Assembly (NCBI GenBank): GCA_938034445.1
Contig: CALHLD010000001.1
Location: forward strand, 840-64,839
Reading direction: 5' to 3'
From: an uncultured archaeon
Lineage (GTDB): Archaea > Thermoproteota > Nitrososphaeria > JACIWG01
Length of the DNA: 64,000 nucleotides
The position numbers and the translations under genes are program-made. Below are positions 1,187-19,094 of this stretch, one piece after another; position 1 is the stretch's first letter; each line of letters begins with the position of its first letter. The notes beneath the pieces were generated by a model, which saw nothing but the letters and a program-made list of their open reading frames with translations, was not told where the DNA came from and ran no database searches.

Positions 1187-2632
1187 CTATATTTTTATTC
1201 CAAAGAAGTTATTTAGTACAAATGCTACAAATATTATTGTATAGAAGATAAGTCCAACGACAATAACAAGGATCTCCCACCATTTCATTCTATACTCTTT
1301 TGGAAGTAGCACAAAATTTACTCCAAGAAGTCCAATATAGCAGAAGACGCCAATAAGGTTAGCAAAAGCTCCAGCCAACACAGCCTGCCATGCAGGCTGT
1401 ACTCCAACGAACATCAGAATAATCCATATAACAGAGAGTACAGCTAATATGGTGTAATAGAGTTTCTTAGCGTCACCCTTAAACCTCTTCTCAAGGCTTG
1501 GGAACGCTGTCCACCAAATGTTTGTAAACTCTCTTGGAAGCTGGTCGACAACATTGACTGTGTTTGTAATATACAGTGCAAGTAGCAATATTGTCATTAA
1601 AACAACCAATGCAGGAATTGGCATATAGTTTGCTAATGCTACAGGGAAAGCCCAGCCACTAGGTATTTCCGCACCCCTTGGTACAAGATGATAGGCTAAT
1701 GCTACAGGGAACCATAAGGTTATGAAGCTTCCGAAGAAGAAGACAATCCATAGCTCTAGATGCACATACTTCATCCACCCATTGTATCTCCTAACATTTT
1801 CTGGGTCTGTTTTTGGCAAGTATCCTTTACTCAAAAATGGTACTGCCTTACCTCCAACAACAGCTGGAATGAAACCAGTCTTCTTTGTCATACCCCATTC
1901 TGTATCCCTATAATAGTTGGTCATCATTATAGCATTTGCAGCATAATTTCCAGCATATCCCGCTATTGCAGCAATGATAGCCCAGTTGACACCAGAAGGC
2001 AAGGATCCAAATGCAAAAAATCCTGCAAAAACCTCGAACAGCACATTTGCTGGCACTATTAAGAGTGTAAGTATAACGATTATGCCAACCTCAACAACCA
2101 CGTCCCACCATGAAAGCAATCCTAGCGTCTTCTGTATTTTCTCACCAAACAATAATGGCGCGATTCCTATAAGTAGGCCTACAACACCTAACGCACCAAC
2201 AAGATACTGTTCAGGCGCCTCTGGAGGTCTACCAAGTGCTATATACGCAAATGTCGTTCCTGTTAAAACCATGTAATATGGCCACATTAATCTAACAAAG
2301 TCCGAAATCGTCCAGATTATGGCCCAAGCCTTCTTTCCAATCCAAAGTCTTGAAATACCACTTATTAGTGGTTCTCCTGTGGCCATCGTATATCTTGTTC
2401 CAGCTATACCACTTACTGTTTGGAAAAATATTGAAATTAGTGCAAACCATAGTATTGTAGGTCCATATGACAAGATTGCTAGAGGTCCAGATATAACTTC
2501 TCCTGTTCCTATTCCAACTGAAACGGAAATTATTGCCGGTCCTATAAGAAATCCTATTATGTCTCTGAATCTTGTAACTTTAAAAGGTTCTGGTATATCT
2601 TCTACTCCCCTAAACTCTTTATCGGTGGACAT
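1187..2632 (-). CDS. Nramp-related (APC/LeuT-fold) membrane transporter with non-canonical metal-site motifs
   Basis: 481 aa, about 11-12 hydrophobic segments. N-terminal region GPAIISVSVGIGTGEVISGP...YGPTILWFALISIFFQTVSGIAGTRYTMATGEPL parallels Nramp TM1-TM2 (GPA..S....DPGN....G...GY.LLW....Q....G...G..L), but DPGN is GTGE and no MPH motif is seen. Confidence 0.55.
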   Translation of the reverse strand: MSTDKEFRGVEDIPEPFKVTRFRDIIGFLIGPAIISVSVGIGTGEVISGPLAILSYGPTILWFALISIFFQTVSGIAGTRYTMATGEPLISGISRLWIGKKAWAIIWTISDFVRLMWPYYMVLTGTTFAYIALGRPPEAPEQYLVGALGVVGLLIGIAPLLFGEKIQKTLGLLSWWDVVVEVGIIVILTLLIVPANVLFEVFAGFFAFGSLPSGVNWAIIAAIAGYAGNYAANAIMMTNYYRDTEWGMTKKTGFIPAVVGGKAVPFLSKGYLPKTDPENVRRYNGWMKYVHLELWIVFFFGSFITLWFPVALAYHLVPRGAEIPSGWAFPVALANYMPIPALVVLMTILLLALYITNTVNVVDQLPREFTNIWWTAFPSLEKRFKGDAKKLYYTILAVLSVIWIILMFVGVQPAWQAVLAGAFANLIGVFCYIGLLGVNFVLLPKEYRMKWWEILVIVVGLIFYTIIFVAFVLNNFFGIKI

Positions 2633-2825: not shown

Positions 2826-3617
2826 ATGTCATTGGATGTCGAGTTCATTTGTAAAGGTGGTTTTGGTAGTGAAGCTGAAATCGATGTCGAGTTAAGACGT
2901 GTTTTTCCAGGTATTGGTGGAACCATATACACTTACCAGGCTATACCTGTTGCCTTTAGGAGGGAATTTTCTTCTTCACCAAATGTTGGACATAGACTTT
3001 TTCTTAAGCATGCTATAATCAAGAAGCTTGAAGACTATTTTTTTAGGAAGGGTGTCTACCATTACGCTCACGTTACCCGTCCTTTGGGTTCCACGTCAGA
3101 GGGATACATTTATGAGTGGGCTTTTGGTAGTGATGTCTTTCCATGGTACTATTCTGATGATTCTGGAGAAAGTATTCCAGTAGAGCTCGATGATTGGAGA
3201 GCCTTTGTTGAAGCGTTTGAAAGTGCTGGTATCGATTTGAGAAAGGACTGTGCTGACCCAGACAATGGTCGTCTTTCACAGAATATAATTCACCAGTTTC
3301 CCTATGGTGCTAGTGTTAGTAAACCTAAGCTTAATAGGCTTTGGAAGAGGATCGATTTCGGTGACAAGAGTGTTTCAATAGATTTTGACCGTCTCCTCTC
3401 ATTCCTTGAAAGGTATGAGGATGATATGAGGGAAAATCTTAGAATTGGAAGGTTTGATATGATAAAACTTTCATGCAAATATCTTCTTTACGGTGATAGA
3501 ATGGATCCTAAAGAATTTGGTGAGCTCACGATGCTTGTTAGAGACTATAGACTTTCAACTTTATCGCATCTTAATACTAGGGGTGTGGAAAGTTCTGGCG
3601 CTGTTAAACTCTTCTAA
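2826..3617 (+). CDS. Uncharacterised protein with protein-kinase-like motif order
   Basis: 263-aa clean ORF. Motifs GGFGSEAE (G-loop-like), YIYEWAFG (hinge-like), RLSQNIIH (catalytic-loop-like) and KRIDFGD (DFG) occur in the order expected for a kinase-like fold. Confidence 0.5.
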   Translation: MSLDVEFICKGGFGSEAEIDVELRRVFPGIGGTIYTYQAIPVAFRREFSSSPNVGHRLFLKHAIIKKLEDYFFRKGVYHYAHVTRPLGSTSEGYIYEWAFGSDVFPWYYSDDSGESIPVELDDWRAFVEAFESAGIDLRKDCADPDNGRLSQNIIHQFPYGASVSKPKLNRLWKRIDFGDKSVSIDFDRLLSFLERYEDDMRENLRIGRFDMIKLSCKYLLYGDRMDPKEFGELTMLVRDYRLSTLSHLNTRGVESSGAVKLF

Positions 3618-3787: not shown

Positions 3788-4045
3788 ATGGATAAGAAGA
3801 CTTCTCAGAAAGAATTTTCTATACTGGACCACTTTCTTGTTCCAAAGCATGAAATTCTTTCTCCAGAGGAAGCTAAAAATGTTTTAGAAACATATCGTGT
3901 TAAGCCGCATCAACTTCCCTACATTTTGTCATCCGATCCTGTAGTTAAGGTGTTAGGTGCTAAGCCGGGTGACATAATAAAGATTACTAGGAAGAGTGAT
4001 GTTGCTGGTGTATCATACTATTACAGGTACGTTATTGAGGGGTGA
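3788..4045 (+). CDS. rpoH: DNA-directed RNA polymerase subunit H (Rpo5/Rpb5 homologue)
   Basis: 85 aa; [56 protein letters not shown] matches the RpoH consensus; directly upstream of and overlapping rpoB. Confidence 0.9.
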
Positions 4046-7000: not shown

Positions 7001-7407
7001 TAGGCGTAGTCTATTATCAGAAGCTACATCATATGGTTGCCGACAAGATTCACGCTAGAGCTAGGGGGCAGGTTCAGATGTTAACTAAACAGCCTACAGA
7101 AGGGCGTTCAAGAGGTGGTGGTCTAAGGTTTGGTGAAATGGAACGTGACTGTCTAATCGCCTATGGAACATCAATGGTTTTAAAGGATAGGCTATTAGAT
7201 GAGTCCGACAAGACTGATGTTCACGTATGTGAAAACTGTGGGCTGATAGCATATTTTGACGCTAAAACTAGAAAGTATACTTGCAGGGTTTGTGGCACTA
7301 ACGCAAAGATAGCCACGGTTTCCATGGCATATGCTTTCAAATTGCTTGTACAGGAAATGATGAGTTTGAACATATTACCTCGCCTGATTTTAAAGGATAA
7401 GATTTGA
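4042..7407 (+). CDS. rpoB: DNA-directed RNA polymerase subunit B (unsplit)
   Basis: 1121 aa with Rpb2 signatures ([42 protein letters not shown]-terminal Zn ribbon CENCG...CRVCG). Start may be the ATG at 4048 rather than the GTG at 4042. Confidence 0.97.
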
Positions 7408-7408
7408 G

Positions 7409-10400
7409 GTGGATATGAAAATGTCTGTTCAAGAAATTCAGAAAAATATTGGTGGAATAAAGTTTTCTGTCTTCTCTCCACAACTTATTAGGGCTTATAG
7501 TGTTGTAGAAATCACAGCTCCAGAAACTTACGATAGAGATGGTTTACCTGTTCCTGGAGGATTAATGGACCCGAGGCTTGGAACACTTGAACCTGGGCAA
7601 AAGTGTGCTACATGCGGTAATACTTCAGCAAAATGTCCAGGCCACTTTGGGCACATTGAGTTAGCGGAGCCTATAATACATGTGGCGTTTGTAGACGACA
7701 TCTACGCCATACTGCAGTCTACTTGTAGGGTTTGTCATAAGCTAATATTAAGTGATGAAGCTATTAACGAATATAAAAAGATTTTAGAAGACAGAAAATA
7801 TGTTACCCCTGAAGTTTATGAAAATATTTCTAGAGAAATTAAGTCTAAAGCTAAAAAGGTTAGACAATGTCCACATTGTGGTAGTGTAAAATATGAGATT
7901 CAGCTTGTCAAGCCTACTACATTCTATGAAATAAGGGAAGAGGGTCCATCACGTCTTCTCGCGAGCTCGATTAGAGCATGGCTTGAGGATATAAACGATA
8001 AAAATCTCATATTGTTAGGATATGATCTTGAAAGGGTGAGGCCTGAATGGTTTGTTTTACAAGTTCTGCCTGTACCGCCTGTTACAGTACGTCCTTCAAT
8101 CATACTTGAGACTGGAATACGTTCTGAAGATGATTTAACACACAAGCTTGTCGACATTCTTAGAACTAATCAAAGGGTTAAGGAGAGTAAGGAGTCGGGT
8201 TCACCCCCTCTTATAGTCCAAGACCTTGTAGACCTTGTGCAGTACCATGTTACAACATATTTTGATAATGAGGTAAGTGGTATTCCACAAGCTCACCACC
8301 GTTCAGGTCGTCCTCTAAGAACTTTAAGCCAGAGGCTTAAGGGTAAAGAGGGTAGGTTTAGAGGAAACCTTTCAGGAAAGCGTGTTGACTTTTCAAGTAG
8401 GACTGTCATCTCTCCTGACCCGAACCTTGACATAAATGAAGTGGGCATTCCTATAGAGGTTGCTAAAAAGCTTACAATTCCAGAGAAGGTTACAAACTGG
8501 AACATTGAAAGGCTAAGACAACTTGTTATTAATGGTGACAATTATCCTGGTGCAAACTATATCATAAGACCTGATGGTGTAAAGATTAGATTAGATTATG
8601 TTCAAGATAGGAAGGCTGTTGCCGCCGCATTAGCCCCAGGATATATTGTCGAAAGACACCTTGTTGACGGTGACATAGTACTATTTAACAGACAACCTTC
8701 ACTTCATAGAATGTCGATTATGGCTCATCATGCTAAAGTTTTACCTGGTAGAACGTTCAGACTTCATCCTGCAGTTTGTCCACCATATAATGCTGACTTC
8801 GATGGCGATGAAATGAACCTTCACGTTCCACAGGGTGAGGAAGCTAGATGTGAAGCTGAACTCTTAATGAGGGTTCAAGATCAGATTCTCTCGCCAAGAT
8901 ATGGTGGACCAATTATTGGTGCAATAAGAGATTTCCTTACAGGAGCATACCTTCTAACAAAAGATGATACATATCTTACAAAAGAAGAGTTTACTAATCT
9001 TGCAAACATCGGAGGATTTACTGGTCCACTACCTGAGCCTGCAATAAAGGAGCCAAAAGAACTTTATCTAGGAAAACAACTCTTCTCACTGTTTCTTTCA
9101 AAAGGTTTCAATTACACCCTTAGAGCAAGCTGGCGTGGAAAACAGGTTGTTATAAAGGATGGTGTGCTTGTTTCCGGTGTTATCGACAAGGCATCAATTG
9201 GCGCAGAAAAGCCTGACAGTATCCTTCATAGGATTGTCAAAGAATATGGTAGTGACGTTGCAAGAAACTTTTTGAACTCAATCTTTAGGGTTATTAAGGC
9301 ATATATTACATCAAAAGGTTTCACCATAGGATATGATGACTTTTGGCTTCCACCAAGTGCTAGAAAGGCTGTAAACCAAGCAATTGCTGAAGCCTACGAT
9401 CGCATAAAGGAACTTCAGAGGCAGTATGAAGAGGGTACCTTACCTCTAATGAGAGGTCTTTCTCCCGAAGAAGCTTTGGAGCTTTACATAGTTAACGAAC
9501 TTTCTAAAGCTCGTGATGACGCTGGAAAGGTTGCTGAAAAACACTTGAGTGACGATAATAGTGCTGTTATAATGGCTAGAACGGGTGCAAGAGGCTCACC
9601 ACTTAATATCGGCCATATGGCTGCAGCTTTAGGACAACAGTCTATACGTGGAAAACGAATAATGAGAGGATATGAAAACAGGGTCTTATGCCACTTTAAA
9701 CCAAATGACCCTAATCCCGATGCAAGAGGCTTTATAAAATCAAATTATAGGGACGGCCTTAATCCACTAGAATTCTTTTTCCACGCCATGGGTGGCAGGG
9801 AAGGTCTAGTCGATACGGCTGTAAGGACTCAACAAAGTGGGTATATGCAGAGGCGTTTGGTTAACGCTATGGAACATCTTAGAGTTGAATATGACCGGAC
9901 TGTCAGAGATCCAGAGGGTGCAATAATACAATTCCTTTATGGTGAAGATGGTGTGGATCCATCTAAGAGTGACCATGGTAAAGCTGTTAATGTTCAAAGA
10001 CTTATTGAAGCAGAACAGCTTGTTGCACAAGGAAAGCCGATTGAACCTGATGAGCTTGAAAACCTACTTAAAGAGTATGCTCATAAGCTCAATCCTAAAC
10101 TGGTTCAGGAATTGAAGACTTCTTTGAGTAAATCGAAGCTTCCTAAACCTAATGTAGAGAATGTGCTAAAGAGGACTGTAGAACTTTTTGAACAAGCTTT
10201 AATTGAACCTGGTGAAGCTGTAGGTGTTGTCGCAGCCCAATCTATAGGTGAGCCAAGTACTCAGATGACTTTAAGAACCTTCCACTTTGCAGGTGTTAGA
10301 GAAAGAGATATCACTTTAGGTCTACCAAGACTTATTGAGCTTGTAGACGCTAGAAGGCAACCATCTACACCTGCAATGGACATATACTTGCTCCCAGAAT

Positions 10401-11203
10401 TTGCTGAAGACCTTAACTTTGCAAGAAAGATTGCTGCAGAAATCAGGTTCTCAAAGATTGGAGATGTTGTGAAAAGTAGTGAAATCGACCCAAGTGGTCA
10501 GATAACATTTGTGCTGGATAAGGAGGCTATGGAAGAACTTGTTGTCACCCCAGAATATGTTGCCTCACAAATAGAAACTGGTAAAAGAAAACCAGAGATA
10601 GTTAACGAGGACACTATAATATTAATGGTTGAAGGAGCCGACCCTGTCTCACTCCAGAGAATGAGGAACAAGATTTTGAACAGCCGACTTAAGGGTATTC
10701 CGGGAATCACTGAAGCCACGGTTGTTAAAGAAGGTTCAGAGTGGGTTATTCAAACAAAAGGCTCAAATCTTTCAAAAGTTTTAAGGATCGAAGGTGTTGA
10801 TCCAACAAGAACCATAACTAACGATATATACGAAATATGGACCACACTTGGGATCGAAGCTGCTAGAGCTGCTCTTGTTAGGGAAATAAGTAAAACGATG
10901 GAAGAGCAAGGTTTGGAGGTAGATATGCGACACATATATTTGGTAGCGGACTTAATGACTGTAACAGGAACGCTAAAGCAGGTCGGCCGCCATGGTGTTG
11001 TCGGAGGGAAGGCGAGTGTTCTAGCAAGAGCTGCATTCGAAATAACAGTTCCCACATTGGCTGAAGCTGCAGTAAAAGGTGAAATTGAGCAGTTAAAGGG
11101 TGTAACCGAAAGTGTTATAGTAGGCCTTCCCATTCCTGTTGGTACTGGAATGGTTGACCTGTTCATAACACAAGGTGAGAATGTTGAACAGAAGCCAAAT
11201 TGA
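7409..11203 (+). CDS. rpoA: DNA-directed RNA polymerase subunit A, with A' and A'' fused in one ORF
   Basis: 1264 aa. A' part has [17 protein letters not shown] and [10 protein letters not shown]; A'' part has [31 protein letters not shown]. No stop or frame change across the expected A'/A'' junction (about 10020-10100). Confidence 0.95.
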   Translation: [1264 protein letters not shown]

Positions 11204-11495
11204 AGCACTACTTGAGCAAGTCACAAAAAAGGGTAAAATAGTGTATGGTGCTAATGAAGTTATGGAAGAGCTTAGGGGTTCAAAGGCTGTTATAGTCTCT
11301 AAATCTGTTAAGCCAGAAGTTAGGCAGAAGCTCTTAAGAGACTGTAAAAAGAACTCTATACCTGTAATCGAATACGATGGTTCATCAATAGATTTAGCTA
11401 GGGCGTTGGGAAAAAACTTTAGAATCTCCGTCCTTTCAATAAAATCTACTGGAGGATTAGATTTAAAACAAATTTTGTCGGAAACTAAAAGTTGA
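11175..11495 (+). CDS. rpl30e: 50S ribosomal protein L30e
   Basis: 106 aa; KGKIVYGANEVMEELRGSKAVIVSKSV...IPVIEYDGSSIDLARALGKNFRISVLSI matches L30e; conserved position after rpoA; start may be the ATG at 11181. Confidence 0.9.
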   Translation: MRMLNRSQIEALLEQVTKKGKIVYGANEVMEELRGSKAVIVSKSVKPEVRQKLLRDCKKNSIPVIEYDGSSIDLARALGKNFRISVLSIKSTGGLDLKQILSETKS

Positions 11496-11950
11496 TTATC
11501 ATGCCTGACAAAATAACATGGTCAACACAAGAACTTGAACTTCTTTCACTTTTCCAAAAAATTAGTGGTGTAACCGCAAGGGATTGTGTTATAGACAATA
11601 AAATGAATCGTGTAATTTTCCTAGTAAACCCTAGCGAAATCGGTCTCGCAATAGGGAGGAAAGGCTCTTGTGTTAAAGCGTTAGAAAACATTATCAAGAA
11701 ACCTGTTGAAATTGTAGCCTACTCAGATGATCCCATACAACTTATAAAAAACACGCTTAACCCAAAATATATTAGCGAAATACGTTTAAGTGAAAGAATG
11801 GATGGAAGTAAAATTGCTGTAGTGGTTTTAACAAGCCCCAAGTTTCAAGGTGCAGTTGTAGGCCTTGGTGGAAAGCATGCAGAAAAAGCACGTCTTCTTG
11901 TAAGAAGATACTTTGACATAGCGGACGTAAGAATTGTTGCCCAAACATAA
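11492..11950 (+). CDS. nusA: Archaeal NusA-like transcription factor (tandem KH domains)
   Basis: 152 aa; KH-type GxxG motifs (IGRKGSCVKAL, VGLGGKHAEKA); conserved position between rpl30e and rps12; likely start ATG at 11501. Confidence 0.85.
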   Translation: MIIMPDKITWSTQELELLSLFQKISGVTARDCVIDNKMNRVIFLVNPSEIGLAIGRKGSCVKALENIIKKPVEIVAYSDDPIQLIKNTLNPKYISEIRLSERMDGSKIAVVVLTSPKFQGAVVGLGGKHAEKARLLVRRYFDIADVRIVAQT

Positions 11951-11998: not shown

Positions 11999-13963
11999 AT
12001 GGGGAAAAAATCGCCTGTAGGAGAATTTGCAGCACGCAAACTGATAGAGAAAAGACAAAAGTTTAGATGGTCTAGTAAAAGGTATATTAAACGTGCACTA
12101 AGGATAAAAGAAAGATTCGATCCACTCGAAGGCGCTCCTCAAGCAAGAGGCATAGTGCTGGAAAAGGTTGGTGTAGAATCAAAGCAGCCTAACTCAGCTA
12201 TAAGAAAATGTGTTGCACCCGACACAAAAATAATGTTGGAAGACGGTGTACTACGGATAAAAGATCTGTCTAATAAATGGTCTGATACGAGAATACTTTC
12301 ATATAATTATCATGACAAAAAGATTGAGCCGACGAATTTAGTTGACTATTTTTCTATAAAGGATTGGGAAGTTGAGGAGCTTGGTTTGTATGAACTTATT
12401 ACAGAAACTGGTAGAAGGCTGATTGGAAGCGGAGACCATCCAATTTATACAGCTAGAGGTATAGTAAATTTAAGGGAAGTTAAAGTAGGTGATAAAGTTA
12501 TAGTTTTACCTTCCGAGCCGCCATTTAAAGAAGAAAGGGATGATGTGATTTTAAATGAAGAGGATATATTGAATGTTGCACCGGAAAAAAGCAATAAAGA
12601 TAGAATTTTAGCTGTGCTTAAAGAAAAAGGTCTTATACCATTAAAATACAGTAATCCAAATATTACAAAGATAGTGAAACTTGTTGGCCACCTCTTCGGT
12701 GACGGTTCACTAAGCCACTCTAAATCAGGCACAGGAATGAGTGGAAAGGTTGTCGTCTCAGGAAATTTTGAAGACTTAGATGATATTAAAAGTGATATTG
12801 AATCCTTAGGTTTTCACTGCTCGCCCATCTATAGAGGATACTCAGAAAGTGTTGTTGACTATGGTTCAGGGCAGCTTCTTATTCGAGGAAATTATCATGC
12901 AGTCCAATGTAACTCTATAGCCCTTTTCACGTTCTTTAAGGCCTTAGGCGTGCCGGTTGGCTCAAAAAGTGATGTAGAGTATAGTTTACCTAAATGGGTC
13001 GTGAATGCTCCACTTTGGATAAAAAGAGAATTTTTAGCATCCTTCTTTGGAAGTGAACTGGAGTCACCCAGAGTTAATGTATCAACATTTTATCCACCAT
13101 CTTTTGCTATAAGTAAAAGGTCTGAGCTACTAGATAGTGGGTTAAGGTTTGTTAACGAATTAAAAGAATTGCTTAAAGAATTTGATGTAAAAGTTTCAAG
13201 TATTAAGGTCTTAAATGGAGTTAAAAGGAGTGATGGTTCATCAACTTACAAGATTATAGTATATATTGCATCGAATATAGACAATCTTATTAATTTGTAC
13301 GGGAAGATAGGATATGAGTATAATAGTATGAGGAAGGTTAGAGCCCGTTATGCCTACCAATATTTAAGGTTGAGAAAACAAAGGATAGAAGCAACAAAAG
13401 AAGCATATAATATTGCATTAAGGTTAAAATCTAACGGCCTATCTTTAGCGAAAATAGCTGAAACTTTACAGACTCAAGGCTATACTTGGATAAATAAGGG
13501 CATTGTACAATATTGGTTATCGAGGAATGTTGATTTAAATAAACTAAATACTACACAACGTTTTATACCATTTGATAAGTGGGTTAAAGAGAGCACGTTA
13601 GGCCTTTCCTCAGGCCTTGTATGGGAGCAAGTTAGATCAGTTAATCCGCTAAAGCTTAATATTGAACTTTATGATGTGACAACAGCGAGCGAAGCTCACA
13701 ATTTCTTTGCCAACAATATTTTGACTGGAAACTGTGTTCGTGTGCAGCTTATTAAAAATAATAAGCAGATTACAGCCTTCTTGCCTGGCGATGGTGCCTT
13801 AAACTATGTGGACGAACATGATGAAGTTCATGTTGAGGGTATTGGCGGTACTTTAGGCCGTTCGATGGGAGACATTCCAGGTGTAAGGTATAAAGTTTTT
13901 AAAGTAAACGGTATTTCTCTTCAGATGCTTGTTCTTGGTCGTAAGGAGAAGCCTAGGAGGTAG
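11999..13963 (+). CDS. rps12: 30S ribosomal protein S12 precursor interrupted by an intein
   Basis: 654-aa ORF. Residues 1-70 (..[20 protein letters not shown]) plus 579-654 ([32 protein letters not shown]..) together give a normal 146-aa archaeal S12. Confidence 0.95.
12209..13732 (+). mobile_element. Intein (508 aa) with LAGLIDADG homing-endonuclease domain inside rps12
   Basis: Cys1 block A ([13 protein letters not shown]), block B (GSGDHPIYT), two LAGLIDADG motifs ([11 protein letters not shown]; [13 protein letters not shown]), HTH-like [11 protein letters not shown], block F/G ([22 protein letters not shown]), then Cys+1. Confidence 0.9.
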
Positions 13964-16689: not shown

Positions 16690-17226
16690 ATGTCAAGTAA
16701 GCAAGTTTGGATTACAAGAGACTTTTTAAGATGCAGTGGCTGCCGCCTATGCGAAATCTCTTGCTCCCTCTATCACGAAGGTAAGATTTGGCCTGAAGCT
16801 TCTAGGATAAGAGTTTTCATGTACGCTCCGGGTATAGAATTTCCACACTTGTGTGCACAGTGCCATGATCATCCGTGTGTTGATGCCTGTCCAACCGAAC
16901 CTAAAGCCTTGTCTGTTGACGAAAGAACAGGCGCTATAATCGTTGACAGAGAAAAATGTATTTCATGCGGTAACTGTATACGTGCTTGTCCAGGGCATGT
17001 GCCCTTCCTACATCCTAAAGACAACAAGGCAACAATATGTGACCTATGCAATGGTGACCCTCAGTGCGTAAAAGTATGTAGGGAAGCAGGATTTAATTGT
17101 CTAAACGTTATAGAATATGATAAGGGACAGGGTGAAGCATTAAACTATAGAGTATACGCTAGGCATCCTAAGGATATTGCAGAAGGTCTTACTGAACTTG
17201 TGTTTGGAGAAAAGATGGAGGTGTAG
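16690..17226 (+). CDS. 4Fe-4S dicluster (polyferredoxin-type) protein, probable AOR electron-transfer partner
   Basis: 178 aa with several Cys clusters (CSGCRLCEISC, CAQCHDHPCVDACP, CISCGNCIRACP, CDLCNGDPQCVKVC); 5 nt upstream of the AOR gene. Confidence 0.8.
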   Translation: MSSKQVWITRDFLRCSGCRLCEISCSLYHEGKIWPEASRIRVFMYAPGIEFPHLCAQCHDHPCVDACPTEPKALSVDERTGAIIVDREKCISCGNCIRACPGHVPFLHPKDNKATICDLCNGDPQCVKVCREAGFNCLNVIEYDKGQGEALNYRVYARHPKDIAEGLTELVFGEKMEV

Positions 17227-17231
17227 TGTGA

Positions 17232-19094
17232 ATGAGAGGCTATGCTGGAAAATTTGCAGAAATAAACTTGACTGAAGAAAAAGTTACAGAAGTAAGATTC
17301 GATGAATCAACTTTGAGAAGCTATATTGGCGGCCGAGGTCTTGCTGCAAAAATACTTTGGGATAGGCTTGGAGAAAGATGGGATGAAGTTGACCCACTCG
17401 GTCCAGAAAACATACTATTACTTCTAAGTGGTCCAATGACCGGCTTCTACCCAGGAGGGCGACTGTGTATTTCTGGAAAATCTCCCCAAAGTAATGGTAT
17501 AACTGGTAGTACTGTGGCTGGAGAGTTCCCTGTTGAACTAAAGTGTGCTGGATGGGATGGCTTAATAATAACTGGTAAGGCAAAGAGGCCATCGTATATT
17601 CTTGTGAAAGATTCGTCAATAGAGATTAGGGATGCAACACATGTTTGGGGAAAGGATGGCAAGCGAACCCTTCTAACACTCTCTAAAGAGGTTAGAGAAG
17701 AATTTGACAAAAAATATAGGGGTAGACTATGGCGTGAGCCCGCGATGGTGTACATTGGTCCTGCTGGAGAAAACAAGTGTAGAGTTGCTGGAGTTCAGTC
17801 TAAGTGGGCTCATGGAGCCGGATATGGTGGATATGGTGCAGTAATGGGTTCAAAGAATCTTAAAGCCGTTTTAGTTAAGGGAACAGGTCCTCTTCCAGAA
17901 GTTTATGATCAAACTAGGATGCTTGAACTCCTAGATCAGGTTAGGAAGGCTTCAATAGCAAATGATGTGTGGAGGAGGTGGGGTACAGGCTACCTAGGCT
18001 ATTATGTCGGTAATGTCCAAAGTTCTGAGCCTGTCAAAAATTGGCAGGAGGAGTGGCATGATGAAAAATCTTTTGCTGTAGACCAGTTCGAGAGTAGGGT
18101 GTGGGTTAAAAGGTATTGGGCTGACTTTGGCTGTCCAATAGCTTGTGAAAAGCTTTCTGTAGTAAGGTGTGGTGACTTCAAGGGTGCTATAACAGATAAC
18201 CCCGATTATGAGACTCAAGCCTACATGGGCACAAACCTTGCCGTATTTACTCCAGAAGCGAACGTTTACCTTAACTCTGTGATAGAAGATCTTGGCTTCT
18301 GTGGTATACAGGTTGGTAACATTCTAGGTTTTGCTGCAGAACTATATCAGAGAGGCATCATTACTAAAGAGGAACTTGATGGTGTAGAATTGAAGTGGGG
18401 TGATGCAAAAGCTTTTGCTAAGGTTGCTGAAATGATTGCGTACAGGAAAGGTTTAGGCGACATACTTGCTGAAGGAACGTATCGTGCCGCCTTAAAGCTT
18501 GGTAAAATCAAGAACATGAACCTACTCGAGTATGCAGTTCAGGCAAAGGGCATTGGTATAGGCGCGCATGGTATTAGAAGTGGACTAGACTATCCACAAC
18601 TACATTCATACGCGTGTGGTGCTCAAGGAGGCGATCACACCTCCGTAGCATATATTCCAATAACACATCCAAGCAGCGAGCATACAACAATGTTAATGGA
18701 TTCTGGAGTATACTGTATGTTTAACAGCTTCTCTGTAACACCACAGTTCCAGATAGACTTTTTGAACGCCGTTACAGGATTCAATATTTCGTTTGAAGAA
18801 TGGTATAATGAGACTGCAAACAGGATTATAGCCATACAGAGGGCTGCGCTTCTAATAGGCGGTCCTGATGCAAAATGGTTTGAGTCGGATGTTAATCCGC
18901 CACGCTTCTATGAACCGTTACCTACAGGTCCATGTAAGGGTAAGGCTCCAAAGCTAGAAGATGTTGAGAAGATGAAAAGCGAATACTATAAGGCTGTTGG
19001 CTGGGACGAAAGGGGTGTGCCAACAAGCGAGACACTTAAGAAGCTTGGCCTTTCTAATGTCGATGCTGTATTAAAGAAGAAGCTTGGTCTATAA
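17232..19094 (+). CDS. aor: Aldehyde:ferredoxin oxidoreductase family tungstoenzyme
   Basis: 620 aa; N-terminal GYAGKFAEINLTEEKV...YIGGRGLAAKILWD and full-length AOR-family similarity. Confidence 0.9.
   Translation: MRGYAGKFAEINLTEEKVTEVRFDESTLRSYIGGRGLAAKILWDRLGERWDEVDPLGPENILLLLSGPMTGFYPGGRLCISGKSPQSNGITGSTVAGEFPVELKCAGWDGLIITGKAKRPSYILVKDSSIEIRDATHVWGKDGKRTLLTLSKEVREEFDKKYRGRLWREPAMVYIGPAGENKCRVAGVQSKWAHGAGYGGYGAVMGSKNLKAVLVKGTGPLPEVYDQTRMLELLDQVRKASIANDVWRRWGTGYLGYYVGNVQSSEPVKNWQEEWHDEKSFAVDQFESRVWVKRYWADFGCPIACEKLSVVRCGDFKGAITDNPDYETQAYMGTNLAVFTPEANVYLNSVIEDLGFCGIQVGNILGFAAELYQRGIITKEELDGVELKWGDAKAFAKVAEMIAYRKGLGDILAEGTYRAALKLGKIKNMNLLEYAVQAKGIGIGAHGIRSGLDYPQLHSYACGAQGGDHTSVAYIPITHPSSEHTTMLMDSGVYCMFNSFSVTPQFQIDFLNAVTGFNISFEEWYNETANRIIAIQRAALLIGGPDAKWFESDVNPPRFYEPLPTGPCKGKAPKLEDVEKMKSEYYKAVGWDERGVPTSETLKKLGLSNVDAVLKKKLGL

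Follow-up and report, generated by a model that had tools for sequence, protein, structure and literature searches.

A single-gene RNA polymerase subunit A in an uncultured Nitrososphaeria archaeon: an established marker of the thaumarchaeal lineage

Structure of the rpoA locus

The window analysed here, a 64,000-nucleotide stretch of contig CALHLD010000001.1, derives from the metagenome-assembled genome (MAG) of an uncultured archaeon and contains an RNA polymerase operon in which the largest subunit, RpoA (Rpo1), is encoded by a single gene. The A' and A'' parts of this subunit, which most archaea encode separately, are found together in one plus-strand open reading frame (ORF; 7409..11203), read as 1264 codons with zero stops, a length that in DNA of 40% G+C is far beyond chance. 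The source MAG is a thaumarchaeon of the class Nitrososphaeria. Homology to both parts, colinearity with them, an intact frame and a clade-wide distribution of the same arrangement are all observed, and the window rpoA is almost certainly the ordinary, vertically inherited single-gene A-type Rpo1 of such an archaeon.

All five Pfam Rpb1 domains (1–5) are matched, in order, in the window RpoA. Both curated NCBIfam models of subunit A' score above their cut-offs, NF006336 with 1292 bits (cut-off 819; residues 8–868) and TIGR02390 with 1271 bits (cut-off 1042.55), and in the same reading frame the subunit A'' model TIGR02389 reaches 441.2 bits (cut-off 420.65) over residues 894–1253. The original prediction, made from the sequence by eye, that one unsplit gene encodes both A' and A'' is thereby borne out, as is its remark that rpoB is likewise unsplit. 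The Zn, catalytic, junction and trigger-loop strings that it quoted are all present at the residues given in Table 1, and the bridge helix is intact, as is the trigger loop. The source MAG, which is 95% complete in 56 contigs, holds one copy of rpoA; a second, split copy was sought across this genome and not found, with one match only.

The annotated GTG start at 7409 falls within a Shine-Dalgarno-like GAGGTG that itself overlaps the rpoB stop codon (TGA, 7405–7407), and the alignments of relatives begin at residues 3–5 of the window RpoA. For these two reasons the true start is probably ATG 7415 or ATG 7421, with a predicted product of 1262 or 1260 aa.

The position at which other archaea divide the subunit was located by aligning the window RpoA with seven split A'/A'' pairs, from Hadarchaeota, Hodarchaeota, Methanosarcinales, Woesearchaeota and Culexarchaeia. 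The last residue of A' in these pairs falls at window residues 874/875 (Q874/G875; nt ~10028–10033), the exception being the Woesearchaeota pair, in which A' ends opposite residue 869. At the 874/875 position the DNA of the split genes has a stop codon, a spacer of 0–50 nt and a new start codon. The fused protein is colinear with A' plus A'', with no linker domain inserted and, at 1264 aa, no deletion at the junction; the intervening stretch is short, variable and archaeal-sized, and matches other fused forms in both length and register. This is the alignment to split pairs that had been proposed as a check on the prediction.

Table 1. Coordinates of rpoA, its parts and the neighbouring genes in the window
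Feature	Position (nt)	Strand	Evidence and remarks
Unsplit rpoA (Rpo1)	7409..11203	+	1264 codons from GTG, probably 1260–1262 aa from ATG
A'-equivalent part, residues 1–874: clamp, Zn motif, catalytic loop, bridge helix	7409..10030	+	NCBIfam A' models; Sulfolobus A' alignment
Zn motif, residues 66–82	7604–7654	+	
Catalytic Mg-binding NADFDGD loop, residues 461–470	8789–8818	+	
Bridge helix	9773–9880	+	Intact
Junction string, residues 865–903	10001–10117	+	
Junction, residues 868–882	10010..10054	+	PDB A' stops at query 867, A'' starts at query 882
A''-equivalent part, residues 875–1264: trigger loop, jaw, cleft, no carboxy-terminal domain (CTD)	10031..11200	+	TIGR02389; PDB A'' chains cover query 882–1253
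Trigger loop, residues 942–963	10232–10297	+	Intact
Shine-Dalgarno-like GAGGTG at rpoB/rpoA boundary	7406..7411	+	Direct sequence reading
rpoH (Rpo5), opens RNA polymerase operon	3788..4045	+	Pfam RNA_pol_Rpb5_C, E 5.5e-32; end overlaps rpoB start
rpoB (Rpo2), unsplit, 1121 aa	4042..7407	+	NCBIfam NF006335, 1631 bits, residues 7–1121; Pfam Rpb2 domains 1–7
rpl30e (L7Ae/L30e family)	11175..11495	+	Pfam PF01248, E 1.4e-12; listed ORF overlaps rpoA end
Archaeal nusA (KH domains)	11492..11950	+	Pfam KH_2 and KH_5
rps12 split by intein	11999..13963	+	Pfam Ribosom_S12_S23 in two stretches; Intein_splicing, residues 78–576

In functional terms, one polypeptide of ~1260 aa would unite all that is shared out between A' and A'' in most archaea. 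By homology, the clamp with the Zn motif, the NADFDGD Mg loop and the bridge helix lie in its first 874 residues, and the trigger loop, jaw and cleft in the A'' part, elements that in most archaea reach the enzyme only by assembly of two chains. A single Rpo1 chain of ~140 kDa is the predicted product.

Distribution and phylogeny

The closest named relatives of the window RpoA are from Nitrososphaeria MAGs (86% and 85% identity), followed by Nitrososphaerales, Nitrosopumilales and Nitrosocaldus (61–68%) and then by Bathyarchaeia (53–59%). The ORF layout was scanned in 80 fetched rpoA loci. Complete-gene loci of Nitrososphaeria, Aigarchaeota, Geothermarchaeota and Bathyarchaeia always have a single ORF of 1250–1330 aa, and those of Hadarchaeota, Hodarchaeota, Methanosarcinales, Woesearchaeota and Culexarchaeia have two, of ~880 and ~390 aa. 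Two MAGs from the MFD long-read set (L019 and L057) show both rpoA and rpoB in several overlapping frames where close relatives are intact, a pattern probably caused by indel errors in assembly.

Within the same GTDB class, an rpoA match was obtained in 199 of the 201 genomes sampled. Among the matches listed, 150 of 150 rows cover the gene from end to end, and no split rpoA was seen among them; a further 58 match rows of the sample fall outside this listing. Seventeen rows flagged with one stop were fetched, ten of them belonging to Nitrososphaeria, and in nine of these ten the only stop is at one end or the other of the match. In the tenth, a Nitrosopumilus-like genome (G167, C34:6568-10544, locus L090), a TAG replaces a conserved Q in the bridge helix of rpoA and divides the ORF into 822 and 448 aa, away from the canonical split site; the TAG may reflect a sequencing error or a polymorphism, or mark a pseudogene.

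Across a phylum-wide sample of 101 genomes, roughly 64 have the fused and 37 the split form. In six split genomes from other classes of the phylum (G235, G228, G221, G263, G272 and G251; loci L092–L096 and L098), A' and A'' are in frame with one another, separated by a single stop codon or, in G251, by two codons; open-frame lengths computed across such single stops are unreliable, and in these six the real A'/A'' boundary was confirmed. A candidate fusion of rpoB with rpoA in genome G188 (“open frame 2398 aa”) was rejected: rpoB lies in another frame and ends with TGA, and the length of the frame reflects a fortuitous absence of stops in overlapping, GC-rich sequence.

A FastTree phylogeny of 73 RpoA sequences, which includes no Korarchaeia and whose root was placed arbitrarily on Methanosarcinales plus Woesearchaeota, groups all 65 fused RpoA sequences (Nitrososphaeria, Aigarchaeota, Bathyarchaeia and Geothermarchaeota) in one clade with support of 100, so that the fused/split character changes once on the tree. 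The window sequence, with its relatives L001 and L002, nests within a Nitrososphaeria clade of 32 rows, outside the clade formed by Nitrosocaldus, Nitrososphaerales and Nitrosopumilales. One fused rpoA placed within Bathyarchaeia (L072, JBLNCY010000047.1) is labelled Methanocella sp. and is probably mis-binned.

Two readings would make the gene something other than an inherited, shared form. The frame was tested across assembled contigs and genomes, and the source is a MAG in 56 contigs; these circumstances give some room to an assembly or sequencing artefact, in which the true A' and A'' genes are split and an indel or miscalled base masks the stop. The probability of this is negligible. The same stop-free frame is kept in four genomes of the same genus (94–98% identity) and four of the same family (85–86%), all eight assembled independently, and contigs from two other studies run through the junction gap-free, with 55 and 42 substitutions. 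Of the contig differences listed, 37 of 40 fall at codon position 3, including all six in nt 10033–10087. Residues 840–920 vary more than the remaining protein, with 22–26 of 81 residues differing from L001 and L002, yet in this region there are zero indels, and 52 of the 89–91 nucleotide differences are at position 3. As the unsplit state is also common to the whole class, the artefact reading is effectively refuted, and the original codon-by-codon reading of a junction with no hidden stop or frame change stands. Equally improbable is an independent, lineage-specific fusion that would make the window a new case of a eukaryote-like trait in a normally split lineage: the family does form a deep, amoA-less branch of Nitrososphaeria with an RpoA only 61–68% identical to that of the cultivated ammonia oxidisers, but it is nested in a fused clade whose sister lineages are all fused, with one fused/split change on the whole RpoA tree, its junction has the length and register of other fused forms, and the literature already gives fusion as the norm for the phylum. 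The chance of such a separate event is accordingly minute.

Published status of the unsplit gene

The unsplit rpoA of Thaumarchaeota and related lineages is a textbook hallmark, in use as a phylogenetic character since 2008–2011 and in print since about that time (PMC3082918, PMC4084955, PMC5484517, PMC5875737). Table 1 of Nunoura et al. (2011) gives RpoA as “fusion” in Caldiarchaeum, Thaumarchaeota and Korarchaeota, and as “split” in Cren- and Euryarchaeota (PMC3082918). Among thaumarchaeal features, Spang et al. (2013) include an unsplit subunit A gene; where their text has “DNA polymerase subunit A”, RNA polymerase is evidently meant (PMC3852633). Da Cunha et al. (2017) defined A-type and A'A''-type polymerases and discussed a single split event (PMC5484517), and the unsplit RpoA of Thaumarchaeota and relatives is also covered by Zhalnina (2014; PMC4084955) and Da Cunha (2018; PMC5875737).

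The statement in the original prediction that Thaumarchaeota possess an unsplit rpoA thus agrees with the published record; the novelty that it implied does not survive, as the contig is itself thaumarchaeal and fusion is the long-published norm there. The RpoA phylogeny that it had suggested as a further check places the contig in a clade in which fusion is the known norm, which makes the unsplit gene a lineage marker rather than a discovery. The arrangement is of practical use here: it identifies the contig taxonomically at a glance and helps to verify that the assembly is sound.

Origin of the unsplit state

How the single gene came about is a separate matter. The fused state may have arisen when two genes sharing a frame lost the stop codon that separated them, an event that would date to the shared ancestor of Bathyarchaeia and Nitrososphaeria (Aigarchaeota included). 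Split relatives with A' and A'' in frame, and only a stop between them, suggest that one substitution turning that stop into a sense codon would suffice to join the two. Because distant phyla all split the gene at an identical site and the fused forms make up a single derived clade in the tree, we lean modestly towards such a derived re-fusion over an ancestral unsplit state.

According to the competing account, the unsplit gene is ancestral, shared with Bacteria and Eukarya, and was kept in Thaumarchaeota, Bathyarchaeia, Aigarchaeota and Korarchaeota, with all other archaea descending from one later split; this would need an archaeal root on or near the thaumarchaeal branch. It is a serious contender, only somewhat less probable in our judgement than re-fusion. 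A root of this kind emerges from the RNA polymerase trees of Da Cunha et al. (2017), who account for the distribution by a single split (PMC5484517); the view of the unsplit gene as an “ancestral feature” is repeated elsewhere (PMC4084955, PMC3852633), and bacterial beta' is colinear across the archaeal split site. Against it, Euryarchaeota, Hadarchaeota, Asgard, DPANN and Culexarchaeia all divide the gene at an identical site, the arbitrarily rooted 73-sequence tree shows the fused forms as one derived clade, and fusion is mutationally trivial where A' and A'' share a frame. Most current archaeal rootings do not put the root at Thaumarchaeota. A secondary rpoA fusion has also been documented, in Pacearchaeota (DPANN), as mentioned by Da Cunha et al. 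(2017; PMC5484517).

Nothing speaks against the identity of the window rpoA as an ordinary A-type gene; the junction was compared by assembled contigs, so rare variants may exist. As to the direction of evolution, the root of the tree is arbitrary (Methanosarcinales, Woesearchaeota) and Korarchaeia are absent from it, and Da Cunha et al. favour the opposite order, an unsplit ancestor and a single subsequent split (PMC5484517). Whether the gene is ancestral or re-fused, a question too wide for this one gene to decide, bears on the rooting of the archaeal tree. There is a slim prospect that rpoA of the window family, with its in-frame split relatives, could help to show that the unsplit gene of thaumarchaea and bathyarchaea is a late re-fusion by stop loss and not ancestral. 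If true, this would remove unsplit rpoA from arguments about the archaeal root.

Operon context and source organism

The genes around rpoA follow the conserved order rpoH-rpoB-rpoA-rpl30e-nusA-rps12-rps7-tuf-rps10, and overlap or are tightly packed. This packing, with the Shine-Dalgarno-like motif at the rpoB/rpoA boundary, suggests that translation of rpoA is probably coupled to that of rpoB, with initiation at ATG 7415 or 7421. Downstream, the intein in ribosomal protein S12 has ~500 residues and lies between two S12 stretches; judged by ORF spacing, the 86%-identical relative L001 seems to be without it, and a literature search on inteins and ribosomal protein S12 returned nothing relevant. 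Upstream of the operon are two ORFs, 1187–2632 (minus strand, 481 aa) and 2826–3617 (plus strand, 263 aa), for which no Pfam family was matched.

Searches for amoA (PF12942) found no match in the source genome or in three genomes of the same family (94–95% complete), nor in 14 control genomes; the positive controls, two relatives in the class, were matched. From its gene content, the source family looks like a group of Nitrososphaeria without ammonia oxidation. In the window, an aldehyde:ferredoxin oxidoreductase gene (17232–19094, plus strand) adjoins one for a 4Fe-4S protein (16690–17226, plus strand). A marine metagenome contains near-identical DNA, and hot-spring metagenomes contain related sequences.

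Comparison with known RNA polymerases

The original prediction described the gene as Rpb1-like, which is apt for the unsplit, one-polypeptide state and not for the expanded foot domain or the CTD of the eukaryotic subunit, both of which are absent. Yeast Rpb1 (1I3Q chain A) aligns with the window RpoA in blocks, residues 14–876 with query 14–852 and residues 1032–1124 with query 906–998, and both proteins have the bridge helix and trigger loop on a single polypeptide. Between these blocks, the foot region measures ~156 residues in yeast Rpb1 versus ~54 in the window RpoA. The latter ends at residue 1264, 11 residues past the A'' homology, and it has no linker, no YSPTSPS-like heptad repeats and no CTD. 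Bacterial beta', as noted, runs colinearly across the position at which archaea split the gene.

Canonical archaeal Rpo1N and Rpo1C, as seen in structures from Saccharolobus/Sulfolobus (2PMZ, 3HKZ, 2WAQ), Thermococcus (4QIW) and Pyrococcus (8CRO), are products of two genes and form two polypeptides, whereas the window has one gene; colinearity with them is nevertheless full-length, and all catalytic elements are kept. Sulfolobus A' aligns over residues 3–873 of 880 with query 11–867, and Sulfolobus A'' over residues 12–389 of 395 with query 882–1252. The secondary fusion in Pacearchaeota also places A' and A'' in one ORF, but the window RpoA is full length, lacks a junction deletion and belongs to a different clade.

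The nearest counterparts are the A-type RpoA/Rpo1 proteins of Thaumarchaeota, Aigarchaeota (Caldiarchaeum), Bathyarchaeota and Korarchaeota. The window differs from these in its setting, belonging to a family that is uncultivated, gave no amoA match and branches on the RpoA tree apart from the clade of ammonia oxidisers, and shows no structural difference from them: it shares with the A-type proteins a single ORF of 1250–1300 aa, the register and length of the junction, and the operon in which the gene is carried.

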